This document shows, piece after piece, positions 53,186-62,878 of a stretch of 64,000 nt of DNA (position 1 is the stretch's first letter; every line of letters begins with the position of its first letter). The stretch is from an uncultured delta proteobacterium (GTDB lineage: Bacteria; Myxococcota_A; Polyangia; Fen-1088), in contig CAWCMR010000008.1 of NCBI GenBank assembly GCA_963796685.1, forward strand, positions 608,001-672,000, written 5' to 3'. The position numbers were made by a program, and so were the translations under genes. Below the pieces are notes generated by a model. It did not search any database. It worked only from the letters and a program-made list of their open reading frames with translations, and was not told the origin of the DNA.

Positions 53186-53289
53186 GCCCAACAAGCCGTT
53201 GCAGCTGTCAATCCCGCCGCCGGGACATCGTGTAGAATCGTAAGGCCGGCTCGGCGGCGGGCTTGCAGCTGAACGGCAAAGCGTTCGAC
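53186..53289 (+). repeat. attC site 3
   Basis: GCCCAAC-AAGCCGTTGCAGCTG...CAGCTGAACGGCAAAGC-GTTCGAC. Confidence 0.88.
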
Positions 53290-53791: not shown

Positions 53792-53854
53792 GTCGAACAA
53801 GGCGTTGCAGCGGACGCCGCTTGCGCGGCGCCGCTGAACGCCAAGGCGTTAGCC
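53792..53854 (+). repeat. attC site 4 (short, 63 bp)
   Basis: GTCGAAC-AAGGCGTTGCAGCGG...CCGCTGAACGCCAAGGC-GTTAGCC. Confidence 0.9.
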
Positions 53855-53859
53855 GGACC

Positions 53860-54642
53860 ATGGACACAGCCATAAAGACAGAATCCGAACGGGCATGGAT
53901 CGAACTCGCCATTCGCGGTACAGCCTTCGTCGTGCCCGAAGGCCCACTTGCGGAGCCAGCCCGATCCGTGGGAAGTGCGACGATTCTCCGCAGCCCTGCG
54001 GGCCACGTCTTTCTGCTGACGGCACGACACATCGCTGAGGATTTCCGGCGAGGACAGATCTGGTTCGGCTACTGGGGCTGCTCCAACGCAGTCAAGACTG
54101 GGATCGCTGTCGCGCTCGTCCCCCCGGATGAGGACGTGGACGTTGCTGTGCTGCTGCTGAGGTACAAGGACCAGAGAGTGCTCGAAACGCTCGCTCGGAG
54201 TTCCACCGAGGTTTCGCAGGATGCGACCGTCGCAAATGGAGACTACCTCGCGATTTCAGGATACCCCTCCACCCTTGTGCACCTCGACCGAGCGCTCGGG
54301 CAGGGATTCACGAGTCTCTTCTACAACTGCATGGTGGACGCCCCGATGAATGACGATGTTGGACGGCTGAGGGTCGCGTGGGGAAAGTACGATGAGCAAC
54401 TGTTCGGGCAGGCGCCACCGCCACCGCCGGGCATGAGCGGAGGCGCGCTTTGGCGGCGCCGCGATCCGACTGACCTTATATGGAGTCCAGCAACGGCGAT
54501 TTCGCTGGTCGGAATCCAATCGGCCTGGATTCAGGATAGGAAGGTGGCCTTTGTCGAACCTACAAGCAGGTGGTTCGGCTGGTACGCAGATAGCGTTGGC
54601 AGACTGGACGCGGGAGAATTCGCTGCACAGGAGGCCGGCTAA
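53860..54642 (+). CDS. Cassette: trypsin-like serine protease
   Basis: Catalytic triad motifs LTARH, DVAVL, GMSGG; no signal peptide. Confidence 0.75.
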   Translation: MDTAIKTESERAWIELAIRGTAFVVPEGPLAEPARSVGSATILRSPAGHVFLLTARHIAEDFRRGQIWFGYWGCSNAVKTGIAVALVPPDEDVDVAVLLLRYKDQRVLETLARSSTEVSQDATVANGDYLAISGYPSTLVHLDRALGQGFTSLFYNCMVDAPMNDDVGRLRVAWGKYDEQLFGQAPPPPPGMSGGALWRRRDPTDLIWSPATAISLVGIQSAWIQDRKVAFVEPTSRWFGWYADSVGRLDAGEFAAQEAG

Positions 54643-54815
54643 GTCGGGTCGGGGACCGGCGCGGTGGTGTGCAGGATGACCCTTGGCTGTGTCCGCCGTT
54701 TCCGGCTTCGTGCCCGTTTAGGGGTTCCATCACTCCGTCTCCGGCCCCCGCCACATCGAACCGGACAGGCGGATTTCCCGCATCCGGCTCACCGCGAAGG
54801 CGTCTTCCATCGGGG

Positions 54816-56109
54816 TTATGCGTCCGTTCCGCCGGGGCATGCTTTCGCGCTCCAGTACACCACGCGGTAGTCTCGAAAGAGGCCCCACGTTCCGTACACA
54901 ACGGCGCTACTCCACCGCTTCCAGCCGAATCCCTTGCGCTTGCACTTCTTGGCCGCCAGTCGCCTCACCTTACGTTCGACCTCGTACTTGATTTTGCCGA
55001 ACGCCGTCCCCGAGTTGCCGACACGAAAGTAGTTCACCCAACCCCGCAGGACAGAATTCACCTGCGCAACCGCCACTGGCATGGGCAAGTGGCGGCTCCT
55101 GCGCAAGATTCTCCCAACTTCCTGTAGGACCGCGATGACCTTCTTCGGTCGCGGGGTTCTGCTCGGATACCATCTTCCAGTCTTCGAGGCTCCGCTCCCA
55201 ACGGAACTCGAATCCCAGAAACGCAAAGCTAGCCCCTGGCTCCGTTATCGTCACCAAACGGGTCTTCTCTGCGTTGAGCGACACGCCGATAGCCTCCGTC
55301 TCGCGGCGGATACGCATAAGCGCTCGGTCCGCCCACTGCCGCCCCTTCGGGGTGTCAGCCGCGAGCACGACCATGTCGTCCAGGTATCGGGCATAGGTGA
55401 TAGTGTCGCCTCCTCGGTCAAGGGCGTGGTCCAGGTCGTCGAGCGCGAGGTTCGCGAGAAGCGGTGACAGCGGCGAGCCTTGCGGCACGCCTCGGTCGCC
55501 GGTGCTCTTGAGAAACTGCTTCACCATGGCCAGCACATCGCTGTCGACCACCCGCCCCGCCACCTTCGCCAAGATTCGGTCATGCCGAATCGTATCGAAG
55601 TAGCGGGACAGATCGACGTCGACCACGCGGTGTCGTCCCTGGCGCAATCCCATTCGCACTTTCTCGCTTGCCTCATGCGCGCTTCGTCCCGGCCTCGCCC
55701 CATACGAGCTGTCCGAGAAGTCGGCTTCGAAGATTGGTTCCACAATCAGCCGAAGGGCGCCTTGCACCACGCGGTCTCGAATCGCAGGAATCGAAATCAC
55801 GCGCACTTTGCCGCCCTCCTTGGGAATCTCTCTTCGACGATACGGCCTCGGGTGGTACCCGTCCGTGCGCAGTTCCTCGGCGAGTTTCGCGAGAAACTCT
55901 CCTCGGCCCTGCGCCTCAATCATCTCGAACGTCTCGGCATCTGACCCAGGGGCTCCGCCATTGCGCTTGGCCTCCAGGTACGCCGCTTCGAGCGTTTCGA
56001 GTTTCTTGATGTGGACGTGCAATCCCCAAAAGCGATGCGCAGGGGCGGACTTCGCCCGTTGGCCTATCTTCGCTCGAAGTTCTTGCAAACTGATGGTGGG
56101 CTTTGTCAT
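54816..56109 (-). CDS. ltrA: Group II intron reverse transcriptase/maturase (no endonuclease domain), frameshifted at ~55189
   Basis: APGSD, IPK-x-GGKVR, DRVVQ, SYGARPGRS, PQGSPLSP, RYLDD, FLGF, and X domain LRGWVNYF. Confidence 0.92.
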
Positions 56110-56567
56110 CCCGCTCTTGCCTCGCTTCTCTGCTCCGATTGCCTCCGGCAGGGCCCCTTTGCTCCGCGGGCGTTACCCCGCTTCCTCGCTCATACGGACC
56201 CATCCGTCAGGCTCTCGCCTTCACCGCACTTCGCCTTCCGGCTCGCGCGACTACCTTGCTTCCGTGGGCTTTCTCCACGGGGCGAGGAGCCCTTCCCTGT
56301 TTTCTCCCATGACCTTGAGCGCGTGCTGCCGTCCTTTACCCCGCCGGGCGGTGCCTCCCCAGATCGCGTTTGGAGTCACCTTCTGCCTTCGCCCCTACTT
56401 GGCCAGCTCGGCACCCGGGGTTTCTTCATCTCGAGGCCTTGTCCAGACGTTCACTCGTCGTTGCGGCCCGCGCCCTTGCTCGCCCCGCCATGCGGGGCTT
56501 TGTCGGTGGGCTTCGCCGCCAGGATTTCCCATGTCGGCGCCACCCAAGCTATGCGGCTTCGATCTTC

Positions 56568-57979
56568 GGCTCTCCTGACATCTTCATGGAAGCGCGGGCA
56601 CCTTGAAGACGGGATGAAGGACAACGCCTGAGCAGCAGAGGAAGATGAAGCCAATGAGGGCTTGAGCGTTGTGGAAGCCATAGGCCCTGCGGGTGATGAC
56701 CCTGATCTTGCCATTAAGGCCCTCGGTTCTTCCGTTATTGAGCCCTGTGGCGACAATGGCCACGATGCCGTCCAGGTATTTCTTGATGGTCGCGGCGACC
56801 TTCTTGAAGGAAGGTAGTCTGGATCGCCTGGCCCAACTGATCCATTCTTCGAGCTTCTGTTTGACGACGTTGACCTGGCGACGACCGAGGATGTCGCAGA
56901 TGGCGATCTTGAGCAGGTAGCCGCGATAGAGTCGGGCATTGGTCTTCGGGAGGGTCGAAAGCCTCTCAGACTCGGCCCTGGATAGGTTCCACGGATTCTT
57001 GAGCAGAAGGTACTTGGTCTTCTTCAGTTGCCCGCGTTCGTCGGTGTCCTCCAGGAGTCGGACCTCCGCACGCCGGAAGCTCGTCGAGTGCTTCCTGCAC
57101 GAGTCTCTGAACGTGGAAGCGGTCGAAGACGATCTGCGCTTGTGGCGCTCGCGAGGTGACCGCGTCGATGTAGGCCGCGGACATGTCGATGGTGACGGTC
57201 TTGAGCTTGCTGGTTCGTTCCGGGCCGAGAGCGTCGAAGAAGCAGCCGAGCGTCGCAGCGTTCTTGCCCTCGTGGGCCCAGACGACCCGCTGCGAGACGT
57301 GGTCGACAACGACGGTGACGTACTCATGGTGCCGCCGGTACGACAACTCGTCGACGCCGATGTGTTCGAGGTCCTCGAGGAGAAGGCTAGGATCTCGGTG
57401 CCGCGGCACCACCCGCTGGATGATGGCGCCGACGGTGCGCCACGCGATGCGCATGGTTTCGGCCACCATCGTCTGGCTTGCTTGTTGGGCCAGATAGGCC
57501 ACGTGGTCCTCGAAGTCACGCGTGAAGCCGACCTTCGGCTCGGCCCAAGGGACCATCTCGATGACCACGCCGCACCGAGGACAGTCAACCCTGCGCAGGG
57601 TGTAGCGCAGAAGAACCTCCATCCCGCACGCGTCCAGATGCCGCCAGTTCCGAGCCCGAGCATCGAACACGTCATGGACCCGACATCCGCAGCCTGAGCA
57701 GTAGGGAACGGTCGTCGTTGGCGCCACGTGCACCAATATGCCAAGCAGATCGAATTCGACCGCCAGGACACGGGTATGTGGAAATTGGAGTAGGTTTCGG
57801 AATAGGGTGGTTGCGCGCATGGGCTCCTGGGCTTGTGGGTTCCAGACAAGCCACACGATACCCCAGGTGCCCGTGCGCACTTCGTCTCCACCTCACCCGG
57901 AACTCATGCCGCCCACATCTCCGTCGGCGACGTGCGTCGCACCTACGAGATCTCCCTTTACGAAGATGTCAGGAGAGCC
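56568..57979 (-). mobile_element. ISL3-family insertion sequence (1,412 bp)
   Basis: Terminal IR GGCTCTCCTGACATCTTC at both ends; 8-bp direct repeat CGATCTTC at 56560-56567 and 57980-57987. Confidence 0.95.
56584..57820 (-). CDS. ISL3 transposase, frameshifted at ~57075
   Basis: Zn finger CSGC/CPRC, IGVDE, TIDMS, FDRFHV, EGLNGKI, RRAYGF. Confidence 0.93.
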
Positions 57980-58039
57980 CGATCTTCTACCGCTTCAGGA
58001 CTTTCACCTTATGGTTTCATGGGTACCTCCAGGCATCAC

Positions 58040-58104
58040 CAAGCCGTTGAAGCTGGCAGTCGGCCGCGGACGGCCGCCTGCAGCTTAACGGCAAGGCGTT
58101 AGCC
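58040..58104 (+). repeat. attC site 5 (main part; R'' GGCTAA left at 54637-54642)
   Basis: C-AAGCCGTTGAAGCTG...CAGCTTAACGGCAAGGC-GTTAGCC. Confidence 0.88.
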
Positions 58105-58341: not shown

Positions 58342-59562
58342 ATGGCTCAACGCACTCGCTCCTCCGATCCGACGGTCATCGATCTTTTCTGCGGCGCTGG
58401 CGGGCTCTCGGCCGGCCTACAGCGAGCCGGATTCTCCACCGTCGCGGCCTTCGACCACAACAAGGCTGCGGTAGCTACGTATTCGAGGAACCTTGGAGAC
58501 CACGTTTCGGCGATCGAGATCGCCCCTGGCCTGGAACTCCCTCGGGTCGATGTCATCGCCGGTGGTCCGCCGTGCCAAGGATTCTCCTCGGCAGGAATGC
58601 GCCGAACGGGAGATGAACGCAACACGCTGGTGTCTGTCTTTGCGCACATCGTCGCGAGGGCGCGACCATTGGCTTTCCTTTTCGAGAATGTGGAAGGCTT
58701 CCTCACTGGCGAAAACGGCAACCGTGTCCTCGACCTGCTGGATCCGCTGATCGAGGCGGGCTATCGCATTCACTTGCGAAAGATTAACGCCGCGAACTAT
58801 GGGGTTCCGCAGCATCGAAAGCGGGTGATCGCACTTGGAGGTCTCGGTTGGGACCCAATGTTTCCAGAGCCAACCCACAGCGCGTTCGGCGCACCTGGAG
58901 CATCCCAGGCCGCTGGGCGGCAGTTGCCGCTGACTCCGTCGGTGTCGACATACCTTGCCGACCTTCCGACTCCACGGCCATCGCCGCCAGGATGTCCTCA
59001 AGGGCACTACAGTTCGCTGCCCGCAGAGGACGACATAGCCAGGTTTCATGCCCTGAAGATGGGGCAGACGATGCGCGATCTTCCCTCCGACCTATGGCAC
59101 CCGAGCTATCGTCGGCGTGCCTACCGCAGAGTCATGGATGGAACCCCGACCGAACGTCGTGGAGGGGCACCAGCAGGTATACGTAGGCTCCACGCAGCCG
59201 AGCCGTCGAAGGCCATCACAAGTTTCGCACGGAATGAATTTGTCCACCCATACGAGGACAGATTCCTGACGCTTCGTGAGTGCGCCCGGATCCAGACGTT
59301 CGATGACGAGTTCGAGTTCGTGGGCTCCGCGGCCGATCAGGCCTTGCTCATCGGCAATTCCATTCCCCCAACTCTAGGCACCGCAATCGCAAGGAGCCTC
59401 GCTGCGCAGCTGCCCGAGCGGTGTGGACGTGCGAGTCGCGGCGCTCTGCTCAGCTTCGTTCCGACCGCCTCATCCGGTATGAGCCCTGCACTAGAGCGCA
59501 TAACCAATCGGGTGGCGACCGCGTACAGGCCCATGACGACTCAGTTGGAACTATGGGACTAG
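58342..59562 (+). CDS. Cassette: DNA (cytosine-5)-methyltransferase
   Basis: DLFCGAGG, GGPPCQGFS, FENVEG, YGVPQHRKR, LTLRECARIQTF, IGNSIPP. Confidence 0.95.
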   Translation: MAQRTRSSDPTVIDLFCGAGGLSAGLQRAGFSTVAAFDHNKAAVATYSRNLGDHVSAIEIAPGLELPRVDVIAGGPPCQGFSSAGMRRTGDERNTLVSVFAHIVARARPLAFLFENVEGFLTGENGNRVLDLLDPLIEAGYRIHLRKINAANYGVPQHRKRVIALGGLGWDPMFPEPTHSAFGAPGASQAAGRQLPLTPSVSTYLADLPTPRPSPPGCPQGHYSSLPAEDDIARFHALKMGQTMRDLPSDLWHPSYRRRAYRRVMDGTPTERRGGAPAGIRRLHAAEPSKAITSFARNEFVHPYEDRFLTLRECARIQTFDDEFEFVGSAADQALLIGNSIPPTLGTAIARSLAAQLPERCGRASRGALLSFVPTASSGMSPALERITNRVATAYRPMTTQLELWD

Positions 59563-60623
59563 ACAAGCTCCAGCGGGCGGTGTTGGTTCGCGCGAAGACC
59601 GCAAGCAATTCGGAGCTAGCGGTGCCCCTTACTGAAGAGGCCTGCTGCTACCTTGCCGTCGTGATTGCATCAGATCTTCGACTCCAACGCAGGTTCAAAG
59701 ACCTGCCGACCAAGATTCTTCCCTTCTTCTCCGAGGATCCATCACTGCTGGTAGTAGAGGGAATGGATTTCTGGAACTTGATGGAACGGCTTGCCAGTGA
59801 AGATCCGGACACTGTTATGTATTTCGCCTGTCTCGCGGCACTCCACAAAGCACGTCTGAAGTACCAGCAAATCCTGAAGCGACAGCCCATTCCGACCATG
59901 GATCAAGTGGGTCCGCGCGGATTACTCCAATTCGGAACGATGACCGCCAAGGCGCTGACCGGGTTCATGCTCTGGCGAAAGTGGATGTTCGATATCGATA
60001 ACCGTGCCGGCCAGGAAACTGGCTATCTCTTTGAGCCAATAATCGCAAATGCGATCGGTGGTGTAGCGTACAGCGCGACGAAGAGTCCCGTAAGGCGCCA
60101 CGGCGACGCAGGAAAGGGACGACAAGTAGACTGCATCGTTGATCGGCGAGCATATGAGATCAAGATGAGGGTTACTATCGCGGCGTCTGGGCAGGGCAGA
60201 TGGGGTGAAGAACTCGAGTTCCCAATCGACGCCCGGAAGAGCGGCTATCAGCCTGTTCTCATCGTGTTCGATCCGACTGAAAACGACAAGCTCGCACAAC
60301 TTTCCGCGGCCTTTCGGGCGCAGAAGGGTGAGGTTTTCGTCGGAGCGAAAGCGTGGAAACACTTGGATGCTGCGGCTGGTTCAACTATGGCCCAGTTCCT
60401 GGAGCGCTACGTGCGTACGCCAAGCCAGGCTCTGTTGAGGGAAATTCCAGACGTCCCAGGGGATCTTCCTGATCTAACGGTGAGGATGGACGAATCGAGA
60501 TTTTCCATCTGCCTGGGAGACGAGGAGTACTCCGTACCTCGTGAAACAGGGGAGGCAGTCACTGATCCTCCCAATGCGGATGAAATACCAGATGACGCCG
60601 ATGAAGGCGTCCCAGGGCCATGA
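59553..60623 (+). CDS. Cassette: putative type II restriction endonuclease (PD-(D/E)XK, ApaLI-like)
   Basis: FE...QVDC...AYEIK motif. Overlaps the MTase stop and sits between MTase and Vsr. Confidence 0.7.
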   Translation: MGLDKLQRAVLVRAKTASNSELAVPLTEEACCYLAVVIASDLRLQRRFKDLPTKILPFFSEDPSLLVVEGMDFWNLMERLASEDPDTVMYFACLAALHKARLKYQQILKRQPIPTMDQVGPRGLLQFGTMTAKALTGFMLWRKWMFDIDNRAGQETGYLFEPIIANAIGGVAYSATKSPVRRHGDAGKGRQVDCIVDRRAYEIKMRVTIAASGQGRWGEELEFPIDARKSGYQPVLIVFDPTENDKLAQLSAAFRAQKGEVFVGAKAWKHLDAAAGSTMAQFLERYVRTPSQALLREIPDVPGDLPDLTVRMDESRFSICLGDEEYSVPRETGEAVTDPPNADEIPDDADEGVPGP

Positions 60624-61893: not shown

Positions 61894-61964
61894 GTCTAAC
61901 AAGCCGTTGCAGCTGACGGTCGGCCGCGGACGGCCGCCCGCAGCTGAACGGCAAAGCGTTCGAC
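61894..61964 (+). repeat. attC site 7
   Basis: GTCTAAC-AAGCCGTTGCAGCTG...CAGCTGAACGGCAAAGC-GTTCGAC. Confidence 0.9.
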
Positions 61965-61980: not shown

Positions 61981-62862
61981 ATGACCGATGACTTGTGCGA
62001 TCAGCTGAAGGAAACTCAGCAGTCCTGGGCCGGTGCCCGTGGCCTCGTGTTCGACGCGCATGGGTACTGCGAGTCATGCAACGCCAATCTCTTCGAACCA
62101 CTCACATCTTGCTCGCTACGCGATATCGCGAGCGGCGATGGCGCGGAGTTCGGAAGCGGAAGCGCGAAGGGAAAGATTCAAGCCCTGCATTCATCGACGG
62201 CATTGGTATGCAACGTGTTCGACTATTGGCGAGGCCGCAACCTTGCGGTTCTTCAGAAAGCTCTCGACTTGTCGGTGCGGCTTTGTGGATTGGCCTTTGA
62301 GCAGAAGTTCCCAACAGGGGCTGGTGGAAGAGCGAATCTTGACGTGGTCCTGTATGGATGCGACGGCACGATATTGGCGATCGAGAGCAAGTTCACAGAG
62401 CCATTCAAAAGGTCAAAGAACAAGTGTTTCCTCAAGCCCAAGTACTTCCCTTCTAACCGATCGCTCTGGAAGGACGCCGGGCTTTCGGGGTGCCAGGCTG
62501 TTGCCGACAGTCTTCGCAATGGACTCCTTCGATTCGAGACGTTGGATGCCGCACAACTTCTGAAACATATGCTCGGCCTCGGGCGAAGCGGCTCTTCTTG
62601 GACCCTGATGTGCATTTGGTACGCACCTGGTGGGCAGCTTTCCAATCTGCATTCCGAGGAACTGGCAGCGTTCTCTAGGGCCCTGGGCGTAGATTCCCCG
62701 AAGTTTCGCACGACAACATATCAGGACCTTTTCCAGAGCCTGGCGCTCGGACCAGAAGACGCCGACTACGCGGCATACCTACAGGCCCGGTACTTCGCTG
62801 AGTCGCTGTCGAACAAGGCGTTGAACCCGACGGTCGGCCGCGGACGGCCGCCCGCGGGTTAA
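61981..62862 (+). CDS. Cassette: putative restriction-endonuclease-like protein (PGN_0703-like PD-(D/E)XK)
   Basis: LHSSTALVCNVF, FEQK, NLDV, IESKFTE, QLLKH. Confidence 0.68.
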   Translation: MTDDLCDQLKETQQSWAGARGLVFDAHGYCESCNANLFEPLTSCSLRDIASGDGAEFGSGSAKGKIQALHSSTALVCNVFDYWRGRNLAVLQKALDLSVRLCGLAFEQKFPTGAGGRANLDVVLYGCDGTILAIESKFTEPFKRSKNKCFLKPKYFPSNRSLWKDAGLSGCQAVADSLRNGLLRFETLDAAQLLKHMLGLGRSGSSWTLMCIWYAPGGQLSNLHSEELAAFSRALGVDSPKFRTTTYQDLFQSLALGPEDADYAAYLQARYFAESLSNKALNPTVGRGRPPAG

Positions 62863-62878
62863 CGCCAAGCCGTTCGAT
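62808..62878 (+). repeat. attC site 8
   Basis: GTCGAAC-AAGGCGTTGAACCCG...CGGGTTAACGCCAAGCC-GTTCGAT. Confidence 0.88.

Follow-up and report, generated by a model that had tools for sequence, protein, structure and literature searches.

We analyzed a stretch of 64,000 nucleotides from the genome of an uncultured delta proteobacterium (GTDB lineage Myxococcota_A; Polyangia; Fen-1088), hereafter called the window (G000:C8:608001-672000 in our numbering of genomes and contigs), in which a group II intron interrupts attC, the recombination site of an integron gene cassette. The intron lies on the minus strand at 54643..58039 and measures 3397 nt together with an insertion sequence (IS) that it carries. 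It begins with GTGATG, ends with ...CCCGAC and contains a match to the Rfam model group-II-D1D4-4 at 56456-56587. In minus-strand orientation the last bases of the 5' exon are ...CTTCAACGGCTTG at 58040, and the intron starts with GTGATG from 58039; the end of the intron, ...CCCGAC at 54643, is followed by the 3' exon TTAGCC from 54642.

The two flanks make up one attC site. On the plus strand its left piece (54636..54642) holds the first six bases of the R'' core, and the remainder (58040..58104) holds the last R'' base, the spacer, the L'' box, the variable loop, L' and R', with GTTAGCC at 58098-58104. On the bottom strand of this attC the insertion point falls after the G of the R'' core and before its TT. 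The flanks match 71-nt attC sites found elsewhere in the window, and the bottom strand of the exons, joined by script, folds into a typical attC hairpin (-30.2 kcal/mol with DNA parameters) in which the R boxes are paired, the spacers unpaired and the L-box stem bulged. The target thus has the features of an integron attC site, namely inverted R''/R' cores together with L boxes, a hairpin of the bottom strand whose spacers stay unpaired, a position 3' of cassette open reading frames (ORFs), an arrangement in arrays and an intI gene in the genome. The cassette ORF preceding the interrupted site (53821-54642) is on the plus strand and the intron is therefore antisense to the cassette. Orientation and junctions are as had been read from the letters of the window alone (the original prediction), being borne out by the minus-strand flanks, the attC match and the hairpin fold.

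No intI gene is present on the window's own contig, and the array is therefore either a cluster of attC sites lacking integron integrases (CALIN) or detached from its integrase. In G000 as a whole three integron integrase genes score over the curated cut-off, with attC matches adjoining two of them, and the attC-family model finds 52 matches, some beside intI on contigs C22, C9 and C6; most are about 65-105 nt long and together they amount to a few kb of 7.3 Mb. On C22 (232551-239000) and C9 (32757-34444) intI is on the same strand as the top strands of the adjoining attC sites, and integrase gene and cassettes appear to be co-oriented there and not divergent. The genomes G002 and G003, which contain close copies of the intron, also carry intI.

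Ribozyme fold and exon recognition

The last five bases of the 5' exon, GCTTG (intron-binding site 1, IBS1; 58040..58044, minus strand), correspond on the bottom strand to four bases of the spacer together with the G of R'', and they pair with CAAGT (exon-binding site 1, EBS1; 56397..56401, minus strand) in the terminal loop of the domain I d3 hairpin. This loop had been located between GCCGAGC.. and ..GGCGAAGGC at 56401-56397, which we confirm. Targeting had originally been ascribed to an EBS1 matched to the attC spacer; the pairing is upheld, and EBS2 and EBS3, which could also be placed, take part in recognition as well. EBS2 (TGAAG; 56424..56428, minus strand) lies in an internal loop of domain I, 26 nt upstream of EBS1, and corresponds to IBS2 (CTTCA; 58048..58052, minus strand), the five bases with which L'' begins when the bottom strand of attC is read. 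EBS3 is the A at 56336 (minus strand, in GGGGTA-A-AGG) and IBS3 the base at 54642. The site is specified by 11 bp formed by EBS1, EBS2 and EBS3 with the attC bottom strand, and as IBS3 is the T that follows the IBS1 G, the intron enters between G and TT.

Pairing of EBS1 and EBS2 was scored in a fixed register over 26 family members, with cognate and with non-cognate exons. EBS1 forms 5/5 pairs with its own exon in 24 of the 26 (mean 4.92 versus 3.08 with non-cognate exons), and this match exceeds chance. For EBS2 at least four of five pairs are found in 16/26 (mean 3.65 versus 2.23), and EBS3 makes a Watson-Crick match with the first base of the 3' exon in all 26, with three states represented. 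The strongest evidence for target pairing comes from near-identical copies with covarying loops: among copies more than 92% identical in DNA the EBS loops change in step with the target. The copies in G000 have the EBS2 TGAAG at CTTCA-ACG-GCTTG, those in G002 have TGCAG at CTGCA-ACG-GCTTG, and sister copies in G003 have TCAAG together with TAGTC at CTTGA-ACG-GACTA.

The element shows what characterizes a group II intron, that is conserved ends, a domain V, the domain I pairings, a reverse transcriptase (RT) with maturase in domain IV and exon recognition by EBS/IBS pairing, and it matches Rfam RF02003. With the domain V model RF00029 the window intron stays below threshold, probably because of its 5-nt domain V loop and its long domain VI. 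A consensus fold of domains I to III from 18 relatives contains 139 pairs, 60 of them with compensatory changes. The alpha' motif (CGATCT; 56361..56366, minus strand) sits in the terminal loop of the d3 stem-loop of domain I, and alpha-alpha' is paired in 95.4% of the cells compared with 17-40% when the partner is slid, with compensatory change in three of the six pairs. Domain V (54757..54791, minus strand) has an AGC triad and a 5-nt terminal loop (GAAAT), as found in 17/17 relatives. The long domain VI of about 115 nt with the 3' tail (54643..54756, minus strand) contains a candidate branch point, the A at 54649, which by its geometry, 7 nt from the 3' end, is likely the one used. Subtraction of the 1281-nt ORF (426 codons and the stop) from the 1977 nt of the IS-free intron leaves a ribozyme of about 690 nt. 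The ends GTGATG...GAC are kept in all relatives, and the 30-odd relatives with resolved junctions all begin with GTGATGCCTG. The GUGAUG start, the AGC triad, the long domain VI and the YLDD motif that had been remarked upon in the original prediction are thus all present; they are traits of the whole family and not of this copy in particular (YLDD occurs in 119/120 homologues among the matches listed).

The window copy itself is damaged in two places. An ISL3-family IS of 1412 bp with terminal inverted repeats (56568..57979, minus strand; domains Zn_ribbon_ISL3, HTH_Tnp_ISL3 and DDE_Tnp_ISL3, the transposase extending over two frames) is bordered by an 8-bp target duplication (GAAGATCG), whose upstream copy is at 57980..57987 and whose downstream copy is at 56560..56567, both on the minus strand. 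Since the duplication contains the alpha motif AGATCG, the IS is located in the alpha loop. The intron minus the IS and one copy of the duplication is 1977 nt long, equal to the IS-free copy L002 described below and to the approximate length first proposed. The transposase ORFs (56966-57880 and 56584-57891) are in two reading frames, and the ends of the IS match at least six other places in the G000 genome.

The second lesion concerns the intron-encoded RT/maturase (54816..56109, minus strand; RVT_1 and GIIM, without an endonuclease domain), in which both the RVT_1 and the GIIM half are there but out of frame. The frameshift had been noted before; compared with intact 426-aa relatives it is a one-base insertion near 55190, at codon ~308. 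The intact relative P0004, one of the close relatives known from metagenomes (P0004-P0007), has RVT_1 (2e-33) and GIIM (1.5e-13) and likewise no endonuclease domain, and intact proteins among the thousands of homologues are 426-430 aa long. DNA alignment with intact copies shows that both copies in G000 are frame-broken by a one-base insertion at codon ~308. The inserted base differs at the same spot, being C in the window (~55190) and A in L002 (~2866), so that the site was either hit twice independently or hit once, with two neighbouring substitutions occurring afterwards. With ISL3 in the alpha loop and the RT frame broken, the window copy has lost the ability to splice or to move unaided.

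Close copies and their insertion sites

The second copy in G000, L002 on contig C6, is IS-free, 1977 nt long and 98% identical to the window intron, and it occupies another attC site of a different cassette at the same junction (...CAACGGCTTG / intron / TTCGAC; here and below a slash marks the insertion point). Altogether ten attC-type 5' junctions were found in three genomes, namely 2/2 in G000, 7/7 in G002 and one in G003; in G002 the seven distinct 3' junctions are attC-type as well. The other copies in G003 lie at ...GACTA/TCCAC or ...CCTA. Close homologues of the window intron are hence found in attC at the same G/TT junction, as the original prediction would have it. Copies of the attC clade share about 97-98% DNA identity with the window copy and L002, and in the RT they reach at least ~95% identity with the intact P0004. 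In a DNA tree the seven attC-type copies tested form one clade (SH-like approximate likelihood ratio test, SH-aLRT, 95), sister to the G003 type. Other sites are used by relatives of 65-97% identity, and those with 65-85% protein identity are found at unrelated ones. Homing to attC is real but confined to a shallow, young clade nested in a family that homes elsewhere.

The G003 sister copies L084, L088, L086, L096, L098 and L103, which are 92-95% identical in DNA, are inserted at ...TTGAACGGACTA/TCCAC. A conserved gene starts about 40 nt downstream of this site, and the copies are antisense to it. In L094, also from G003, the 5' exon contains a tandem duplication with the first eight intron bases (...GATTCGACTA GTGATGCC ... 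GATTCGACTA/GTGATGCC). L038 and L039 (74-76% protein identity) are found at ...CTTG/TTCAAA in the loop of a palindrome (CCCCTCGGAA ... TTCCGAGGGG), which suggests that the family more generally favours structured repeats. A short remnant of a 3' end, L003, is at a non-attC site, and L008 and L010 are weak domain V-like matches. A metagenome scan with the intact relative, from which 80 loci were kept and two 5' and 46 3' junctions resolved, gave no attC-type junction; nearly all of its loci are 36-51% identical, two being at 77% and 81%. A soil clade among them at ~46-50% identity (L107, L114, L116, L146, L149, L161, L174) has recurrent 3' exons T..TAGGGGG, which suggests another repeated target element.

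In the attC clade the target is probably read mainly by RNA-DNA pairing, of EBS2 with five bases of L'', of EBS1 with four spacer bases and the G of R'', and of EBS3 with the next T. Reverse splicing would then occur between G and TT, one base before the site used by the IIC-attC introns, the attC-targeting introns of class C. As the RT has no endonuclease, cDNA synthesis would presumably be primed from strands of the replication fork, by analogy with other endonuclease-less introns. The specificity for attC has probably arisen by retargeting of the EBS loops within a family homing elsewhere, independently of class C.

Recognition might also take more than pairing and require, as with the IIC-attC introns, the attC hairpin in its folded single-stranded form or a protein that binds it; the lineage would be tied to integron biology and not to a repeated sequence. 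We regard this as possible but rather unlikely. It would agree with the attC clade having the shortest EBS1 pairing in the family (5 bp, versus 6-8 bp by eye in several relatives), with the use of the recombinogenic bottom strand only and with the position of L038 and L039 in the loop of another palindrome. IBS2, however, is inside the L-box stem, which must melt before it can pair, and the occupied sites all share the same 11 paired bases, so that there is no sign of tolerance for attC sites of other sequence.

Integron cassettes are mobile, attC sites recombine and both G000 copies are RT-defective, and one could therefore suppose that the attC location is incidental, resulting from a single landing followed by cassette duplication or integrase shuffling, or from chance insertions. 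This is very improbable. The flanking cassette sequence on the side of the 3' exon and the variable attC loop in the 5' exon vary between copies (attC is 71 nt long in G000 and ~100 nt in G002), and the copies have thus not spread as whole cassettes. Moreover, from one genome to the next the EBS2 loop changes together with L'' in the sites that are occupied, and ten chance hits out of ten are not credible given that the modelled attC sites total only a few kb of 7.3 Mb.

Two of the 47 modelled R'' ends in G000 are occupied, and only 18 have the IBS1-IBS3 string (exact GCTTG-TT). This corrects the proposal that other attC sites offer the same or a near-identical target; the type with an AAGGC spacer makes 4/5 EBS1 pairs. 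An example of the latter in the window is the 71-nt attC at 62808..62878 (plus strand). A neighbouring site of the same array at 53188..53288 (plus strand; C8:661188-661288) is empty and matches the full target, and a 71-nt attC at 61894..61964 (plus strand), also empty, does so with CTGCA as its IBS2. The cassette that follows the interrupted site (58342-60623) codes for a C-5 cytosine DNA methyltransferase (PF00145, 2.6e-61), with which a weak match to an ApaLI-like restriction endonuclease overlaps, and looks like a restriction-modification system borne as an integron cassette.

Position among group II introns

For comparison with class C the IIC-attC references were two integron-borne introns from Klebsiella plasmids (L074 and L075), each in antisense orientation. 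One is flanked by the arr-2 and aac(6')-Ib cassettes and the other is beside blaIMP-4, and they insert at TTGT/T and start with GTACG. In a maximum-likelihood tree of 22 RTs the window RT falls into a clade with support 100/99 together with Rfam D1D4-4 introns of Sorangium cellulosum So ce56, Bradyrhizobium and Bacillus toyonensis; the five class C sequences including the two references form a separate clade, also with 100/99. The window RT is 27-28% identical to the references. The window intron and its family match only the Rfam type D1D4-4, the class C references D1D4-3 and D1D4-1. The RT motif of the class C references is YADD, and that of the Bradyrhizobium and Bacillus relatives FADD. 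The window intron has neither an RT in the class C clade nor a ribozyme without EBS2, and it is not class C. The bottom strand and the antisense orientation are shared with the IIC-attC introns, and the junction TTG/TT is one base earlier than TTGT/T. In both respects, the RT standing apart from IIC-attC and the shift of the junction relative to the two references, the original prediction has held.

It is hardly conceivable that the intron is a divergent member of the known IIC-attC lineage that reads the attC stem-loop and a short IBS1, for although strand, orientation, a core site within one base, the missing endonuclease and the class C affinity of the nearest solved RT structures would fit, the separation of the RT clades is supported on both sides, the identity to the references is low, the RNA belongs to another Rfam type, EBS2 and EBS3 are present and covary with their targets whereas IIC introns are described as lacking EBS2 and having a shortened EBS1 (Nagy et al. 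2013, PMC3753933), the ribozyme comprises ~690 nt and the junction is G/TT and not GT/T.

A plasmid match from S. meliloti was taken up as a candidate for RmInt1 and rejected because its RNA type is class C. On a Bradyrhizobium japonicum plasmid (L077) two group II intron RT genes are arranged head to tail within 600 bp, beside an IS66 transposase.

For IIE and IIF introns the description by Nagy et al. (2013, PMC3753933) gives a IIB-like fold, alpha' at the tip of the D1d3 stem-loop, a 5-nt domain V loop and a length of 450-700 nt without the ORF, and all four hallmarks are found in the family of the window intron. The group g2 of Toro and Martinez-Abarca (2013, PMC3552965) comprises Mx.xa.I1 (formerly class F), Sg.ce.I1, B.th.I3, W.e.I5 and Ma.sp.I2. 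The single GIIM match in S. cellulosum So ce56 is L024, a member of the family, and Myxococcus introns are within the family too. From this link and the RNA hallmarks we conclude that the family most probably belongs to g2 (class F in the broad sense); L024, the Myxococcus introns and the clustering with the B. toyonensis plasmid intron serve here as a proxy for the named g2 references. The initial description of the intron as E/F-like has accordingly gained the RNA hallmarks of IIE/IIF, its link to a class coming from the hallmarks in the literature and the g2 proxy and not from a tree with labelled E or F introns. Of the independent lineage specialised on cassettes that had been envisaged, the position of the RT outside IIC-attC stands, and the specialisation is limited to the shallow attC clade nested in a family using other sites.

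Homing to attC outside class C

We consider it likely that the window intron is a decayed, endonuclease-less intron with a IIB-like ribozyme of the IIE/IIF kind, most probably of g2, and that it belongs to a young sub-lineage which retrohomes by pairing, and independently of class C, into the bottom strands of attC sites in the chromosomal integrons of its host. This is a second, independent origin of attC homing.

Several points weigh against this reading or narrow it. The tree contains no labelled references of classes D, E, F, B, CL or ML. The nearest RTs among solved structures are class C (E 2e-53 and 3e-52), followed among group II intron RT structures by 6me0 and LtrA (E 1e-31 and 3e-27), and the family is therefore a neighbour of class C. 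A sharp separation is also tempered by Monachello et al. (2016, PMC4748821), where F and g1 introns appear as the outgroup of class C. In G000 15 empty attC sites match the full target, so that the sites are far from saturated. No intact RT of the family was found in the G000 assembly (88.6% complete), both copies there being frame-broken. The junction L099 in G002 has a mismatched, diverged IBS1 and may be a recombinant or an assembly artefact; L084 in G003 combines an attC-type EBS1 with a non-attC site, which may reflect recombination or a chimeric assembly. As the three genomes are possibly close kin, the ten junctions do not represent ten independent lineages, and the attC-type 5' junction string was found in 0/400 other genomes sampled from the phylum. 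In the link to g2 we take Sg.ce to stand for Sorangium cellulosum, which is our own reading of the abbreviation. Splicing, mobility and the route of priming are inferred.

The closest known systems differ from the intron described here in several ways. The IIC-attC introns (S.ma.I2, Kl.pn.I-type), a monophyletic subset of class C (Leon et al. 2010, PMC3001079), also enter the attC bottom strand antisense and inside R'', are endonuclease-less and live in cassette arrays. They have, however, their own RT clade, D1D4-3/-1 RNAs, the junction GT/T, a GTACG start and YADD in contrast to D1D4-4, G/TT, GTGATG and YLDD, and the window intron possesses EBS2, EBS3 and a larger ribozyme. With the g2 or IIE/IIF introns it shares the absence of an endonuclease, the IIB-like RNA, alpha' in the terminal loop of D1d3, the 5-nt domain V loop and a ribozyme of ~690 nt; the g2 introns, to which the family is assigned by proxy, are described as homing-site introns, attC targeting being unreported for them in the available text of PMC3552965 and PMC3753933. 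Introns outside class C have been found in integrons and CALINs of halophiles, a CL1 intron and two class E fragments, in what was called the first association of IIB introns with integrons (Sonbol and Siam 2021, PMC7923331). The full-length CL1 intron is in sense orientation just after attC without conserved flanks, unlike the window intron. The class E elements, which have attC-like structures upstream, are 5'-truncated fragments in a CALIN. For none of these introns does the accessible part of that paper give a junction that recurs identically or an EBS/IBS pairing that fits attC. Retargeting of the RmInt1 type (PMC4615759) offers a parallel in that close relatives differ in EBS loops and target and move without an endonuclease; the target there is an insertion sequence and here an integron recombination site.

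Reviews have held attC homing to be a matter of class C: Zimmerly and Semper (2015, PMC4424553) distinguish three target specificities and, in the text available, assign attC insertion to class C only. The sole report of IIB introns in integrons concerns, as far as its accessible text goes, an association without a specific repeated junction (PMC7923331). As far as our literature search reaches, no paper was found on an intron outside class C that recurs at one attC junction or has an EBS2 matching attC. New is thus a full-length intron outside class C with a repeated identical attC junction and a pairing that is explained base by base.

The mechanism is readable in 11 paired bases over L'', the spacer and R'', and the sister copies can be viewed as natural 'retargeting mutants'. 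It becomes testable whether the attC hairpin is needed or the sequence only, and why endonuclease-less introns favour the recombinogenic strand. If the folded attC or the integrase contributes, the lineage would be a second retroelement dedicated to integrons. As a tentative generalization, which we put forward as less probable than not, attC bottom strands may be a privileged niche reached repeatedly and by different means by endonuclease-less introns, in this case by a IIB-like, class F-like lineage through few changes of EBS1 and EBS2, converging within one base on the IIC-attC site. For the annotation of chromosomal integrons from the environment it is of consequence that an insertion of this kind breaks an attC site apart and joins cassettes together. 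If it is such a dedicated retroelement, the lineage could immobilize cassettes, as R'' is separated from L'', or contribute to their creation within the large chromosomal integrons that Myxococcota-like bacteria carry.

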